Assembly: GCF_002854065.1 (NCBI RefSeq)
Contig: NZ_CP024147.1
Length of the DNA stretch: 64,000 nucleotides
Reading direction: 5' to 3' (one strand)
Source: Escherichia coli
GTDB lineage: Bacteria; Pseudomonadota; Gammaproteobacteria; Enterobacterales; Enterobacteriaceae
Under the pieces are notes generated by a model that saw nothing but the letters and a program-made list of their open reading frames with translations, searched no databases and was not told where the DNA came from. How positions within the stretch are numbered: the stretch's first letter is position 1; every line of letters begins with the position of its first letter. Below are positions 24,996 through 57,250 of this stretch, piece after piece. A program made the position numbers and the translations under genes.

Positions 24996-26537
<1,542 letters not shown>

Positions 26538-26605
26538 CCTTAAAGAAGCGTTCTTTGTAGTGCTCACACAGATTGTCTGATGAAAATGAGCAGTAAAACC
26601 TCTAC

Positions 26606-26682
<77 letters not shown>

Positions 26683-26724
26683 AATTTGCACGGCAAATTT
26701 GAAGAGGTTTTAACTACATGTTAT

Positions 26725-26800
26725 GGGGCTATAGCTCAGCTGGGAGAGCGCCTGCTTTGCACGCAGGAGGTCTGCGGTTCGATCCCGCATAGCTCCACCA
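26725..26800 (+). tRNA. alaT: tRNA-Ala (TGC), rrn spacer
   Basis: ggggctatagctcagctgggagagcgcctgctttgcacgcaggag...cca. Confidence 0.95.
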
Positions 26801-26983
26801 TCTCTGTAGTGATTAAATAAAAAATACTTCAGAGTGTACCTGCAAAGGTTCACTGCGAAGTTTTGCTCTTTAAAAATCTGGATCAAGCTGAAAATTGAAA
26901 CACTGAACAACGAGAGTTGTTCGTGAGTCTCTCAAATTTTCGCAACACGATGATGAGTCGCAAGAAACATCTTCGGGTTGTGA

Positions 26984-29886
<2,903 letters not shown>

Positions 29887-29978
29887 ACAACGCCGAAGCT
29901 GTTTTGGCGGATGAGAGAAGATTTTCAGCCTGATACAGATTAAATCAGAACGCAGAAGCGGTCTGATAAAACAGAATT

Positions 29979-30098
29979 TGCCTGGCGGCCTTAGCGCGGT
30001 GGTCCCACCTGACCCCATGCCGAACTCAGAAGTGAAACGCCGTAGCGCCGATGGTAGTGTGGGGTCTCCCCATGCGAGAGTAGGGAACTGCCAGGCAT
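29979..30098 (+). rRNA. rrfA: 5S ribosomal RNA
   Basis: tgcctggcggccttagcgcggtgg...gggaactgccaggcat; 120 nt. Confidence 0.95.
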
Positions 30099-33386: not shown

Positions 33387-33451
33387 TTATTTAATAGGTG
33401 ATGCTGCCAACTTACTGATTTAGTGTATGATGGTGTTTTTGAGGTGCTCCA

Positions 33452-33727
33452 GTGGCTTCTGTTTCTATCAGCTGTCCCTCCTGTTCAGCTACTGACGGGG
33501 TGGTGCGTAACGGCAAAAGCACTGCCGGACATCAGCGCTATCTCTGCTCTCACTGCCGTAAAACATGGCAACTGCAGTTCACTTACACCGCTTCTCAACC
33601 CGGTACGCACCAGAAAATCATTGATATGGCCATGAATGGCGTTGGATGCCGGGCAACCGCCCGCATTATGGGCGTTGGCCTCAACACGATTTTCCGCCAT
33701 TTAAAAAACTCAGGCCGCAGTCGGTAA
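33452..33727 (+). CDS. insA: IS1 InsA
   Basis: 91-aa [43 protein letters not shown]. Confidence 0.9.
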
Positions 33728-34149
33728 CCTCGCGCATACAGCCGGGCAGTGACGTCATCGTCTGCGCGGAAATGGACGAACAGTGGGGATACGTCGGGGC
33801 TAAATCGCGCCAGCGCTGGCTGTTTTACGCGTATGACAGGCTCCGGAAGACGGTTGTTGCGCACGTATTCGGTGAACGCACTATGGCGACGCTGGGGCGT
33901 CTTATGAGCCTGCTGTCACCCTTTGACGTGGTGATATGGATGACGGATGGCTGGCCGCTGTATGAATCCCGCCTGAAGGGAAAGCTGCACGTAATCAGCA
34001 AGCGATATACGCAGCGAATTGAGCGGCATAACCTGAATCTGAGGCAGCACCTGGCACGGCTGGGACGGAAGTCGCTGTCGTTCTCAAAATCGGTGGAGCT
34101 GCATGACAAAGTCATCGGGCATTATCTGAACATAAAACACTATCAATAA
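33646..34149 (+). CDS. insB: IS1 InsB reading frame (transposase made as InsAB' by -1 frameshift)
   Basis: 167-aa ORF overlapping the insA 3' end; ttaaaaaactc slippery motif in the overlap. Confidence 0.85.
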
Positions 34150-34164
34150 GTTGGAGTCATTACC

Positions 34165-40373: not shown

Positions 40374-40520
40374 GATTCGCCTGAACATGCCCTTTTTTCG
40401 TAAGTAAGCAACATAAGCTGTCACGTTTTGTGATGGCTATTAGAAATTCCTATGCAACAACTGAAAAAAAATTACAAAAAGTGCTTTCTGAACTGAACAA
40501 AAAAGAGTAAAGTTAGTCGC

Positions 40521-40629
40521 GTAGGGTACAGAGGTAAGATGTTCTATCTTTCAGACCTTTTACTTCACGTAATCGGATTTGGCTGAATATTTTAGCCGCC
40601 CCAGTCAGTAATGACTGGGGCGTTTTTTA
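40521..40629 (+). ncRNA. spf: Spot 42 small RNA
   Basis: gtagggtacagaggtaagatgttctatctttcagacc ... gccccagtcagtaatgactggggcgtttttta; sits between polA and engB. Confidence 0.9.
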
Positions 40630-41657: not shown

Positions 41658-41903
41658 ATAGAGCGAGGACGCTAACAGGAACAATGACTCAGGATGAGGG
41701 TCAGGAGCGCCAGGAGGCGAAGACAGAGGATTGTCAGGAAGACAAACGTCCGGAGACGTAATTAAACGGAAATGGAATCAACACGGATTGTTCCGGCTAA
41801 TGGAAAAACAGGGTGTGTTGGCGGCCTGCAAGGATTGTAAGACCCGTTAAGGGTTATGAGTCAGGAAAAAAGGCGACAGAGTAATCTGTCGCCTTTTTTC
41901 TTT
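41658..41903 (+). ncRNA. csrC: CsrC small RNA (CsrA-sequestering)
   Basis: Multiple GGA motifs (aggatgagggtcaggagcgccaggaggcgaagacagagga...) ending in hairpin gcgacagagtaatctgtcgcc plus T-run; between engB and yihI. Confidence 0.8.
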
Positions 41904-41968
41904 GCTTGCTTTCTGTTAGATTCCGCCGCAAATCTATACTGAATAAAACGGCTAAAAGACGAACCATT

Positions 41969-48654: not shown

Positions 48655-48726
48655 CTGCACCATGATGTGAATGTTGCACCAATATAGTGCTTCAATGGAA
48701 ACATTAAGCACCATATTGGTGCAATG
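48655..48726. promoter_or_regulatory. NtrC enhancer sites upstream of glnA
   Basis: Repeated tgcacc(a)...tggtgca dyads. Confidence 0.6.
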
Positions 48727-48874
48727 ACCTTTGGATAACCCTTTTTATGCTCCGTGAAAGCGATCACAAAGGGACTCTGCAATACTTGTTTGCGGAGGAT
48801 GTTTGTGATCCTGTTTTGTAGTGCGATTAATCCGTGTACAATAACGCGCTATTTCTAATGCCTGAGGCAAAGTT

Positions 48875-50914: not shown

Positions 50915-51550
50915 ATGGCGGAGAATCAATCCACCGTAGAAAATGCAAAAGAGAAACTGGATCGGTGGTTGAAAGATGGCATCACCACGCCGGGTGGAAA
51001 ACTCCCTTCAGAAAGAGAGCTGGGAGAACTGCTGGGCATTAAACGTATGACGCTGCGCCAGGCGTTGTTGAACCTCGAGGCAGAATCCAAAATCTTCCGT
51101 AAGGATCGTAAGGGGTGGTTCGTGACCCAGCCGCGATTTAATTACAGTCCGGAGCTGTCGGCGAGCTTTCAGCGGGCCGCAATTGAGCAAGGGCGAGAGC
51201 CTTCCTGGGGGTTTACCGAGAAAAACCGTACCAGCGATATTCCCGAGACGCTCGCGCCACTGATTGCAGTGACGCCATCAACTGAACTCTATCGCATCAC
51301 CGGCTGGGGGGCGCTGGAAGGACATAAAGTTTTCTATCACGAAACATATATTAATCCTGAAGTTGCTCCGGGCTTTATTGAACAACTTGAAAACCACTCA
51401 TTTTCTGCAGTCTGGGAAAAGTGCTACCAAAAAGAGACGGTAGTAAAAAAATTGATTTTCAAACCCGTCAGAATGCCGGGCGATATCAGCAAGTATCTTG
51501 GCGGTTCTGCGGGTATGCCAGCGATATTAATTGAAAAGCATCGCGCCGAC
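50915..51550 (+). pseudogene. yihL: yihL (GntR-family regulator) truncated at codon 212 by IS1
   Basis: ORF 50915..51577 runs into the IS1 left end and stops after 7 IS1-encoded codons (GDAANLLI); HTH N-terminus intact. Confidence 0.75.
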
Positions 51551-51605
51551 GGTGATGCTGCCAACTTACTGATTTAGTGTATGATGGTGTCTTTGAGGTG
51601 CTCCA

Positions 51606-51881
51606 GTGGCTTCTGTTTCTATCAGCTGTCCCTCCTGTTCAGCTACTGACGGGGTGGTGCGTAACGGCAAAAGCACTGCCGGACATCAGCGCTATCTCTG
51701 CTCTCACTGCCGTAAAACATGGCAACTGCAGTTCACTTACACCGCTTCTCAACCCGGTACGCACCAGAAAATCATTGATATGGCCATGAATGGCGTTGGA
51801 TGCCGGGCAACCGCCCGCATTATGGGCGTTGGCCTCAACACGATTTTCCGCCATTTAAAAAACTCAGGCCGCAGTCGGTAA
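51606..51881 (+). CDS. insA: IS1 InsA
   Basis: Protein identical to copy 1 InsA. Confidence 0.9.
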
Positions 51882-52303
51882 CCTCGCGCATACAGCCGGG
51901 CAGTGACGTCATCGTCTGCGCGGAAATGGACGAACAGTGGGGATACGTCGGGGCTAAATCGCGCCAGCGCTGGCTGTTTTACGCGTATGACAGGCTCCGG
52001 AAGACGGTTGTTGCGCACGTATTCGGTGAACGCACTATGGCGACGCTGGGGCGTCTTATGAGCCTGCTGTCACCCTTTGACGTGGTGATATGGATGACGG
52101 ATGGCTGGCCGCTGTATGAATCCCGCCTGAAGGGAAAGCTGCACGTAATCAGCAAGCGATATACGCAGCGAATTGAGCGGCATAACCTGAATCTGAGGCA
52201 GCACCTGGCACGGCTGGGACGGAAGTCGCTGTCGTTCTCAAAATCGGTGGAGCTGCATGACAAAGTCATCGGGCATTATCTGAACATAAAACACTATCAA
52301 TAA
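51800..52303 (+). CDS. insB: IS1 InsB reading frame
   Basis: Protein identical to copy 1 InsB. Confidence 0.85.
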
Positions 52304-52318
52304 GTTGGAGTCATTACC

Positions 52319-53306
52319 GCCGGGGTATTGGGGCATCCTCTTTGTCTGGGCGCTATTTGGCGTTACTTGCGACATGATGAACTGGCCGGTCTTACTCAAG
52401 TCGGTAAGTCGATTGGGCAATAGCGAACAACAAGGTCGGTTGTTTGGCTTCTTCGAAACAGGGCGTGGCATTGTCGATACCGTGGTGGCATTTTCTGCGT
52501 TGGCAGTATTTACCTGGTTTGGCAGTGGCTTATTGGGTTTTAAAGCAGGCATCTGGTTCTATTCCCTTATTGTGATTGCCGTAGGCATTATTATTTTCTT
52601 TGTCCTGAATGACAAAGAAGAGGCACCGTCCGTTGAGGTGAAAAAAGAAGACGGAGCATCGCAAAACACCAGTATGACCTCGGTGCTGAAAGACAAAACT
52701 ATCTGGCTTATCGCTTTCAACGTCTTCTTCGTTTACGCGGTTTACTGTGGCCTGACATTCTTCATTCCATTCCTGAAAAACATCTATCTATTGCCCGTTG
52801 CGCTGGTGGGGGCTTACGGCATCATTAACCAATACTGTCTGAAAATGATTGGTGGACCGATTGGTGGCATGATTTCAGATAAGATCCTGAAATCGCCGAG
52901 TAAATATCTATGCTACACCTTTATCATCAGTACCGCTGCGCTCGTACTGTTGATTATGCTGCCGCACGAAAGTATGCCGGTCTATTTAGGGATGGCATGT
53001 ACGCTGGGCTTTGGCGCGATAGTCTTTACACAGCGAGCCGTATTTTTTGCACCTATCGGCGAAGCAAAAATTGCTGAAAATAAAACAGGCGCGGTGATGG
53101 CGTTGGGTAGCTTTATTGGTTACGCCCCGGCGATGTTCTGCTTTAGTCTGTATGGCTACATTCTGGATTTAAATCCGGGGATTATTGGCTACAAAATCGT
53201 GTTTGGCATTATGGCCTGCTTCGCATTCTGTGGTGCGGTGGTTTCCGTAATGCTGGTTAAGCGTATTAGCCAACGTAAGAAAGAGATGCTGGCGGCTGAA
53301 GCTTAA
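52319..53306 (+). pseudogene. yihN: MFS-type transporter gene 3' portion (yihN-like), 5' end replaced by IS1
   Basis: ORF 52305..53306 starts inside IS1; multi-TM C-terminal region; no start codon or promoter of its own. Confidence 0.65.
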
Positions 53307-53310
53307 TTAA

Positions 53311-53367
53311 TGGCCGGATGTGCTTAATCCGGCCAAAAAAAATCCGCTGAATCCCCAGCGGATTTTT
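53311..53367. terminator. Bidirectional terminator (two hairpins with A-run and T-run)
   Basis: ggccggatgtgcttaatccggcc aaaaaaaa tccgctgaatccccagcggat ttttt. Confidence 0.55.
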
Positions 53368-53427
53368 CGAAGTTTCAATTTCAGGATACTTCTTGCTCGG
53401 CAACTACCAGTTCAACATTCTCTTCAC

Positions 53428-53766
53428 TTAACAACTGGCAGAAAGAATTGGGAGGCGGGGCATCAGTAAAAAAAGCCCTGACATTCCGTGCATTGCCAAC
53501 GCTACCGCGCCGTGAAAAACATCGCCTGCTCCAGTCGTATCAACCACATTGACAGAAAATGCATCCTGTTGACACAAATGATCATCTTTAATCCACAATG
53601 AATCTTCAGAACCCAGCGTGACATACACTTTACCCGCAGTTTGTGTCGTTGCCTGGTACAAACCTTCTTCAGGTGACTGCAGGCCAGTCATGCGTTTCCG
53701 CCCTGGCGTTGAGAACACGGCGTGATCAGTAAGCGCGACAAGTGGATAAATATCCTGCGGTGTCAT
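53428..53766 (-). pseudogene. PfkB-family sugar kinase gene fragment (yihV-like)
   Basis: 112-aa ORF with ribokinase-family motif VVDTTGAGDVFHGA; lacks N-terminal half; C-terminus after a T7 run looks frameshifted. Confidence 0.55.
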
Positions 53767-53955
53767 ATCGTCGCTGGTTATCGAAACTCGTTGGCAATTT
53801 ACACCTGAATCTTAACCATTCATCTATTGCGAAAAAGCCAGTGAAATTACTCTGCTTTTTCGCAATCAGCATCACAAGATTACCCTTATTGCCACATAGC
53901 CAAACCCATCCTTTCCCGCTACAGTTAATTTCTTGTGGCGCGAAAGGAGGCAAAA

Positions 53956-54555
53956 ATGCTCTATATCTTTGATTTAGGTAATGTGATTGTCGATATCGAC
54001 TTTAACCGTGTGCTGGGAGCCTGGAGCGATTTAACGCGTATTCCGCTGGCTACGCTTAAGAAGAGTTTTCATATGGGGGAGGCGTTTCATCAGCATGAGC
54101 GCGGGGAAATTAGCGACGAAGCGTTCGCAGAGGCGCTGTGTCATGAGATGGCTCTACCGCTAAGCTACGAGCAGTTCTCTCACGGCTGGCAGGCGGTGTT
54201 TGTTGCGCTGCGCCCGGAAGTGATCGCCATCATGCATAAACTGCGTGAGCAGGGGCATCGCGTGGTGGTGCTTTCCAATACCAACCGCCTGCATACCACC
54301 TTCTGGCCGGAAGAATACCCGGAAATTCGTGATGCTGCTGACCATATCTATCTGTCGCAAGATCTGGGGATGCGCAAACCTGAAGCACGAATTTACCAGC
54401 ATGTTTTGCAGGCAGAAGGTTTTTCACCCAGCGATACGGTCTTTTTCGACGATAACGCCGATAATATAGAAGGAGCTAATCATCTAGGCATTACCAGTAT
54501 TCTGGTGAAAGATAAAACCACCATCCCGGACTATTTCGCGAAGGTGTTATGCTAA
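53956..54555 (+). CDS. yihX: HAD-family alpha-D-glucose-1-phosphate phosphatase YihX
   Basis: ORF trimmed to [16 protein letters not shown] with SD aaggagg; 199 aa. Confidence 0.9.
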
Positions 54556-56841: not shown

Positions 56842-57250
56842 CTGATGGAGAGGGGCGGTGCTGCCTCTCTCATTCAGGTCATTTATATTAGTCCTTGGCT
56901 ATTTCGGTTATATTGAATAAGAACTCTATAAATTTTTATTCTTCGTTGGCTCCATACGTGTCTTGCTACATCACTGTTCAGGAGCATTTAAATATTATTT
57001 GTAGAGCTGTATGGCAATTATCGCAGATAATGCTTAATTCATCATCTTAGTTCATGTTTGAGCGATTTTTGATAGTCAAAACCCCCTCTGGTGCCATACT
57101 TTTCTCATAAATATTTTTAAAATCTATAGCTAACAAATATTATGCAAAGATAATGGGCTGGCATCATTGTCAGTATCATTCATTTACTGCTCTGGATGTT
57201 ATAAATAATTATGTTGTATGTTTGCTCTTAACTGTGGAAAGGAGGCTGTA

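Follow-up and report, generated by a model that had tools for sequence, protein, structure and literature searches.

Gene remnants between yihN and yihX

We analysed a 64-kb stretch of Escherichia coli DNA (contig NZ_CP024147.1; hereafter the window) in the region where yihN and yihX are neighbours. The stop codon of yihN ends at position 53306 and the ATG of yihX lies at 53956–53958, leaving a gap of 649 bp (53307–53955), in line with the approximately 650 bp given in an earlier note on this DNA. The left border of this interval is formed by the 3′ part of yihN (52319–53306, plus strand), which encodes an MFS transporter and is present in the window without its first 278 bp, lost through an IS1 insertion and deletion. 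The right border is formed by an intact yihX (53956–54555, plus strand), encoding a HAD-family glucose-1-phosphatase.

Two hairpins, neither assigned to a strand, follow yihN. One is REP-like (GGCCGGAT...ATCCGGCC) and occupies positions 53311–53334. The other lies between A8 and T5 at 53335–53372, with fold z-scores of −6.4 and −5.7 for the two strands. This second hairpin has been kept intact and has the shape of a bidirectional intrinsic terminator common to the convergent genes yihN and yihW′ (see below); the predicted terminator probably still terminates yihN. A simple terminator scan of 53200–54050 returned nothing, although folding shows the A8-hairpin-T5 structure. Over the same range a promoter scan found no promoter-like sites, and an Rfam scan of the whole window gave no match inside the interval.

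The yih locus has been reported to carry either a long or a short cassette, which occupy one locus in opposite orientation (Kaznadzey et al. 2025, Int J Mol Sci 26:10351, PMC12608037). The remainder of the interval consists of stubs of three short-cassette genes, marked here with a prime where they have yih names, and of native flanking sequence. The 3′ end of the DeoR/GlpR regulator gene (yihW′; 53381–53499, minus strand) retains the last 39 codons and the stop, and its translation is the exact C-terminus of intact regulator alleles. It is joined to codons 161–258 of the PfkB kinase gene (yihV′; 53494–53773, minus strand), which are followed by the last 42 nt of the aldose-1-epimerase gene, including its TAA stop (53774–53815, plus strand), and by the yihX upstream intergenic region (53816–53955, plus strand), which is 99–100% identical to that of short-cassette genomes. 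When all K-12 and short-cassette proteins were compared with the 64-kb window by tblastn, only these stubs matched. No other yih catabolic gene was found in the window, nor any piece of ompL, yihO, yihP, yihQ or yihS. The interval would not be expected to encode anything functional because the regulator stub lacks the DNA-binding N-terminus and the kinase stub lacks more than half of its fold.

The kinase stub is part of a minus-strand open reading frame (ORF) of 112 amino acids (53428–53766) that contains VVDTTGAGDVFHGA. The ORF matched the Pfam PfkB domain (PF00294) at positions 179–268 of 302 (E = 2e-13), scoring 50.8 bits and thus passing the gathering cut-off of 25.8. Since the profile match spans only these positions, the ORF lacks the N-terminal half of the domain, as the earlier note had recognised. 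A complete fold would include the substrate-binding half at the N-terminus and, beyond the GAGD motif, the C-terminal helix; the ORF retains codons 161–258 of 298, carries a two-codon deletion and ends in an out-of-frame tail. The two codons were lost through a 6-bp in-frame deletion between 53506 and 53507. The tail, comprising the last 21 residues, is the DeoR gene end read out of frame: at the first junction the kinase frame reads TTG GCA and then ATG CAC GGA ..., one base off the DeoR frame, and reading on through the DeoR stub gives MHGMSGLFLLMPRLPILSASC followed by a stop codon. The unusual C-terminus described in the earlier note is therefore real, but it starts at this junction (53494–53499) and not after the T7 run, which is an A7 run on the plus strand (53467–53473) at least 21 nt inside the out-of-frame tail. 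The run, suspected of being a sequencing error, is neither an error nor a frameshift but native DeoR sequence: all intact DeoR genes compared have it in the same form, including that of strain 2017.15.02CC (L003), where it lies in frame and encodes ..RAFFTD...

At the protein level, the fragment is 88% identical to residues 163–254 of the short-cassette kinase and 57% identical to K-12 YihV (BLASTP). At the DNA level, it is about 94% identical to the short-cassette kinase gene over 264–286 bp, whereas just 55 bp resemble K-12 yihV, at 82%. An orthologue of K-12 yihV, which encodes sulfofructose kinase, would be expected to be near-identical in DNA within E. coli, and the fragment is far from that. 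The proposal that the fragment is yihV thus holds for the family and fails for the K-12 gene. Among 5.8 billion proteins searched with a 93-amino-acid fragment as the query, no closer full-length kinase was found; the matches were 11 short truncated proteins, representing the same pseudogene product and a few fragments. The 112-amino-acid ORF is a pseudogene fragment of the YihV subfamily of PfkB kinases and not a functional member of it.

The parent cassette and the two junctions

The short cassette is known to lie between yihN (or typA) and yihX, to be scattered across phylogroups and to be carried by E. coli Nissle 1917, UTI89 and other strains; long-cassette homologues were found nowhere else in short-cassette strains (PMC12608037). 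In its intact form, the gene order is yihN(+), yihW′(−), yihV′(−), yihU′(+), aldolase(+), Zn-dependent dehydrogenase(+), two MFS transporters(+), aldose-1-epimerase(+) and yihX(+), and 8,809 bp separate yihN from yihX. UTI89, 2017.15.02CC and strain 48 have this order in common. The regulator, kinase, reductase and aldolase show 67–73% protein identity to CsqR, YihV, YihU and YihT, respectively, and the epimerase shows 27% identity to YihR; nothing in the K-12 cluster matches the dehydrogenase or either transporter. Among the short-cassette proteins, only the reductase passed an NCBIfam equivalog cut-off (sulfolactaldehyde 3-reductase).

We also observed that the cassette published as yihTUVW comprises eight genes over 8.8 kb (L003 14168–22726). 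Beyond yihTUVW, it holds the Zn-dependent dehydrogenase, the two MFS transporters (one of them shikimate-transporter-like) and the aldose-1-epimerase. Having no close counterpart in the K-12 cluster, these additional genes suggest that the short cassette acts on a substrate other than sulfoquinovose. The cassette of Nissle 1917 is not induced by sulfoquinovose (PMC12608037).

The K-12 sulfoquinovose (sulfo-EMP) cluster, ompL-yihOPQRSTUVW(csqR), is the allelic alternative at this locus. It has the opposite orientation and measures 12.0 kb rather than 8.8 kb, and it contains yihQ, yihS, yihO, yihP and ompL, which both the short cassette and the interval in the window lack. In a K-12-type genome, 12,040 bp (ompL to csqR) separate yihN and yihX, with ompL and yihO through yihU on the minus strand and yihV, csqR (yihW) and yihX on the plus strand. 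The K-12 gene order and yihV orientation from which the earlier note had argued are thus correct.

By blastn, the sequence at 53200–54050 resolved into three collinear pieces of L003, with overlaps of 6 bp and 2 bp between adjacent pieces. Window positions 53200–53499 correspond to L003 13951–14286 (the yihN end, the hairpins and the DeoR gene end), 53494–53773 to L003 15128–15413 (kinase codons 161–258) and 53772–54050 to L003 22683–22961 (the last 42 nt of the epimerase gene, the intergenic region and yihX). The three pieces are likewise collinear with L002 and L006. At junction 1 (53494–53499), a 6-bp microhomology, TGCCAA, is common to the DeoR gene and the kinase gene. The sequence missing here measures 847 bp (L003 14287–15133) and comprises DeoR codons 1 to about 223, the spacer between the two genes and kinase codons 259–298. 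At junction 2 (53772–53773), the microhomology is the dinucleotide CG, and 7,271 bp (L003 15414–22684) are missing, comprising kinase codons 1–160, yihU′, the aldolase, Zn-dependent dehydrogenase and two MFS transporter genes, and most of the aldose-1-epimerase gene. The CG is clean in the O145:H28 copy described below, and the window carries a later G-to-T change at 53771. In addition, a further 36-bp REP-like unit that follows the first in intact short-cassette genomes is missing from the window after 53334. The size balance is exact: 8,809 − 847 − 7,271 − 36 − 6 = 649.

Compared with an intact short cassette, the interval occupies the same chromosomal site, shows the same order and orientation of regulator, kinase and epimerase genes, and has 94–100% DNA identity in the retained parts. 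It differs in having lost 8.1 of the 8.8 kb and in containing no complete gene: yihU′ and yihT′ are missing altogether, and yihW′, yihV′ and the epimerase gene are reduced to stubs. We conclude, with a probability of about 90%, that these 649 bp are what two microhomology deletions have left of the short reversed yih cassette and that they no longer function. The ancestor would have been an intact short cassette, the alternative allele to the K-12 sulfoquinovose cluster, which two deletions at short microhomologies (about 8.1 kb in total) would have gutted, leaving three gene stubs and the native flanks (the yihN/yihW′ terminator hairpin and the yihX upstream region). Deletions of this type are a signature of illegitimate recombination or replication slippage, either of which may have been at work here; a 2-bp match such as that at junction 2 is weak evidence when taken alone. 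The kinase stub lies on the minus strand because the gene already lay that way round in the parent cassette, and the scar can be explained without an inversion. What the earlier note had called a deletion scar is one, although the loss was not a single event of about 12 kb, and the different ancestral arrangement that it had named as a fallback was the correct choice. We also considered a role for IS1 in forming the scar and rejected it, since both junctions are free of IS sequence and the scar is the same in carriers that lack this IS1.

Distribution and divergence of the scar

In a comparison of a 751-bp region with 5,426 complete E. coli genomes, the scar, recognised by the kinase stub at 99.3–100% identity, was present in 38 (about 0.7%). 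Many of the other genomes have genes for a DeoR regulator and a sugar kinase beside yihN, on the strand opposite to it. An intact short-cassette kinase gene with 90–95% identity to the stub (best 94.3%) was found in 1,327 genomes, about a quarter, and at least 80% of the K-12 cluster was present in 3,884. None of the 5,426 genomes had only one of the two junctions, a pattern that does not distinguish two successive deletions from a single complex event. Besides O145:H28 Shiga-toxin-producing strains such as RM13514 and RM12581, the carriers included isolates of bovine, baboon, vegetable and wastewater origin as well as strain 100416, which came from Gambian stool. When one O145:H28 scar (L005) was aligned base by base, both junctions were identical to those in the window. 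In O145:H28 strains, PGAP annotates both stubs as partial DeoR and PfkB pseudogenes (ECRM13514_RS35905 and RS24765 in RM13514, for example). The scar is thus already annotated in RefSeq, and it is a case of ordinary gene loss from a published allelic cassette.

The O145:H28 scars (e.g. that of RM13514) have the same junctions as the window and are 99.6–100% identical to it, whereas the yihX genes are only 97.0% identical, which indicates that the neighbourhood is mosaic. The two also differ to the left of the scar, where yihL, yihM and yihN are intact in O145:H28 and the window has an IS1-linked deletion of 1.4 kb. In the window, an IS1 of 768 bp (51551–52318; flanks 50915–51550 and 52319–53306) replaces 1,442 bp, which has cost yihL 75 bp at its end, removed yihM entirely and taken 278 bp from the start of yihN, and the yihL frame runs into the IS1 terminal repeat. 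This IS1 is absent from O145:H28 and is an event separate from the scar. The IS1 deletion and the scar occurred together in 2 out of 5,426 complete genomes (CUWW06 and 100416).

The kinase stub (53500–53771) was about 6% diverged from every intact allele sampled, compared with 0–1% for the right flank (53774–53955; Fisher p = 0.0006–0.012). Relative to intact alleles, the stub had 15–17 substitutions, with pS of 0.10–0.11, pN of 0.045 and pN/pS of 0.41–0.47. The three intact kinase alleles compared were identical or differed at one site within the stretch covered by the stub; over the whole gene, their pS was 0.02–0.03 and their pN 0.003–0.006, giving a pN/pS of roughly 0.1–0.2. The raised pN/pS and the loss of two codons are signs of decay in the stub. 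Its synonymous divergence exceeds that between the intact alleles, so simple recent decay is insufficient as an explanation. The excess calls for at least one of three explanations, which may combine: great age of the scar, with drift of the stub; descent from a divergent parent cassette; or homologous recombination that has made the flanks uniform and spared the 280-bp island between the junctions. The local mosaic is consistent with recombination around such a shielded island. With about 6% divergence from all 1,327 intact short-cassette alleles, the kinase stub may be the sole surviving trace of a third, unsampled and deeply diverged Escherichia yih cassette lineage, which we think unlikely; if this were true, the stub would be a small molecular fossil, protected from homologous recombination by its place between two junctions, that dates the cassette polymorphism.

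Alternative origins, phenotype and neighbouring features

The earlier note had proposed that a K-12-type ompL–yihW cluster of about 12 kb was deleted and that a leftover piece of yihV was inverted. Although the fragment does belong to the YihV family and the K-12 gene order is as the note stated it, with yihV on the plus strand, we regard this history as very improbable. The short match to K-12 yihV DNA compares poorly with about 94% identity to the short-cassette kinase over a length roughly that of the stub, and the DeoR and epimerase stubs run on into the flanks exactly as the complete genes do in short-cassette genomes, while showing no detectable DNA similarity to K-12 csqR or yihR. The low identity of the short-cassette epimerase to YihR and the absence of any piece of ompL, yihO, yihP, yihQ and yihS point the same way. 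Nor is a collapsed assembly or a homopolymer error that produced a falsely truncated gene credible in practice. Homopolymer runs are commonly error-prone, and the abundance of IS1 in this genome can mislead assembly; yet the same structure was present in 38 independently assembled complete genomes, the L005 alignment reproduced both junctions, and the A7/T7 run is identical and in frame in intact DeoR genes. It is also most unlikely that the 112-amino-acid ORF is a functional mini-protein or that the stubs have been kept for a regulatory role. The frame is open, an internal Met start has been kept, the GAGD motif is retained, and the scar is old and conserved at 99.3–100% among the 38 carriers, although common descent would be enough to produce such conservation. 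The ORF has lost over half of the PfkB fold, including the N-terminal part that binds the substrate, 21 out-of-frame residues stand at the end, no promoter-like site was found by the scan of 53200–54050, and the relaxed constraint and two-codon loss also argue against function.

A single complex event, such as template switching during replication that skipped twice and kept a 280-bp island, may have produced the remnant of the short cassette, although we lean towards two deletions. The lack of a single-deletion intermediate among the 5,426 genomes and the very short microhomology at both junctions would fit one event. No evidence speaks directly against it; the DeoR tail had 1–4 differences in 113 nt compared with 15–16 in 264 nt for the stub, a mildly suggestive difference with weak statistics (p = 0.03–0.45). 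The DeoR-tail changes were all synonymous except at the junction codon. Together with the greater divergence of the stub, this hints that the DeoR gene was under selection after the kinase gene had been broken, in which case the 7.3-kb deletion would have come first, although the statistics behind this order are weak.

Kaznadzey et al. describe two states of the locus, long and short, and the scar is a degraded derivative of the latter; the text and supplement of PMC12608037 contain no mention of O145, RM13514, pseudogene, remnant or absent. Beside the two published cassettes, the yih locus of E. coli has a third, degraded "null" state, found in the O145:H28 Shiga-toxin lineage among others, and the two junctions, being fixed, could be used to mark a lineage. 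Carriers would be expected to have neither short-cassette function nor the sulfo-EMP route for sulfoquinovose. As the earlier note had predicted, it is plausible that the strain would not grow on sulfoquinovose. Loss of sulfoquinovose use is a reasonable expectation because the long and short cassettes share one locus, and the prediction is weakened because Nissle 1917, which lacks yihQ, yihR and yihS, grows about as poorly on sulfoquinovose as K-12 does (PMC12608037). For annotation, the locus offers a caution, as orientation judged against K-12 alone misleads where cassettes are allelic. The finding of the scar itself would carry little weight beyond bookkeeping.

Elsewhere in the window, a second IS1 lies between dsbA and yihF at 33397–34164. 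Its left terminal repeat starts at 33397, and the end at 34164 assumes the standard 768-bp length, an insB-like ORF reaching 34149. No IS1 is annotated here in strain 100416, which is otherwise nearly identical, so the window belongs to a related but distinct, IS1-rich genome. Positions 24996–30096 hold an rRNA operon (16S, two tRNAs, 23S and 5S), and the small RNAs Spot 42, CsrC and ES222 lie at 40511–40629, 41658–41911 and 48686–48793, respectively; their positions fit the annotated polA-glnA-typA gene order, with nothing unusual. Between fabY and yiiE, a continuous ORF of 615 amino acids (57218–59065, plus strand) had no Pfam or NCBIfam match, and PGAP divides this DNA between a partial pseudogene named "hypothetical protein" and a "transposase" (WP_077790038.1). 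Of the surrounding sequence (56900–59700), at least 80% was present in 1,061 out of 5,426 genomes, and K-12-like genomes have only 27% of it. The 57218–59065 ORF is possibly an uncharacterised mobile element.
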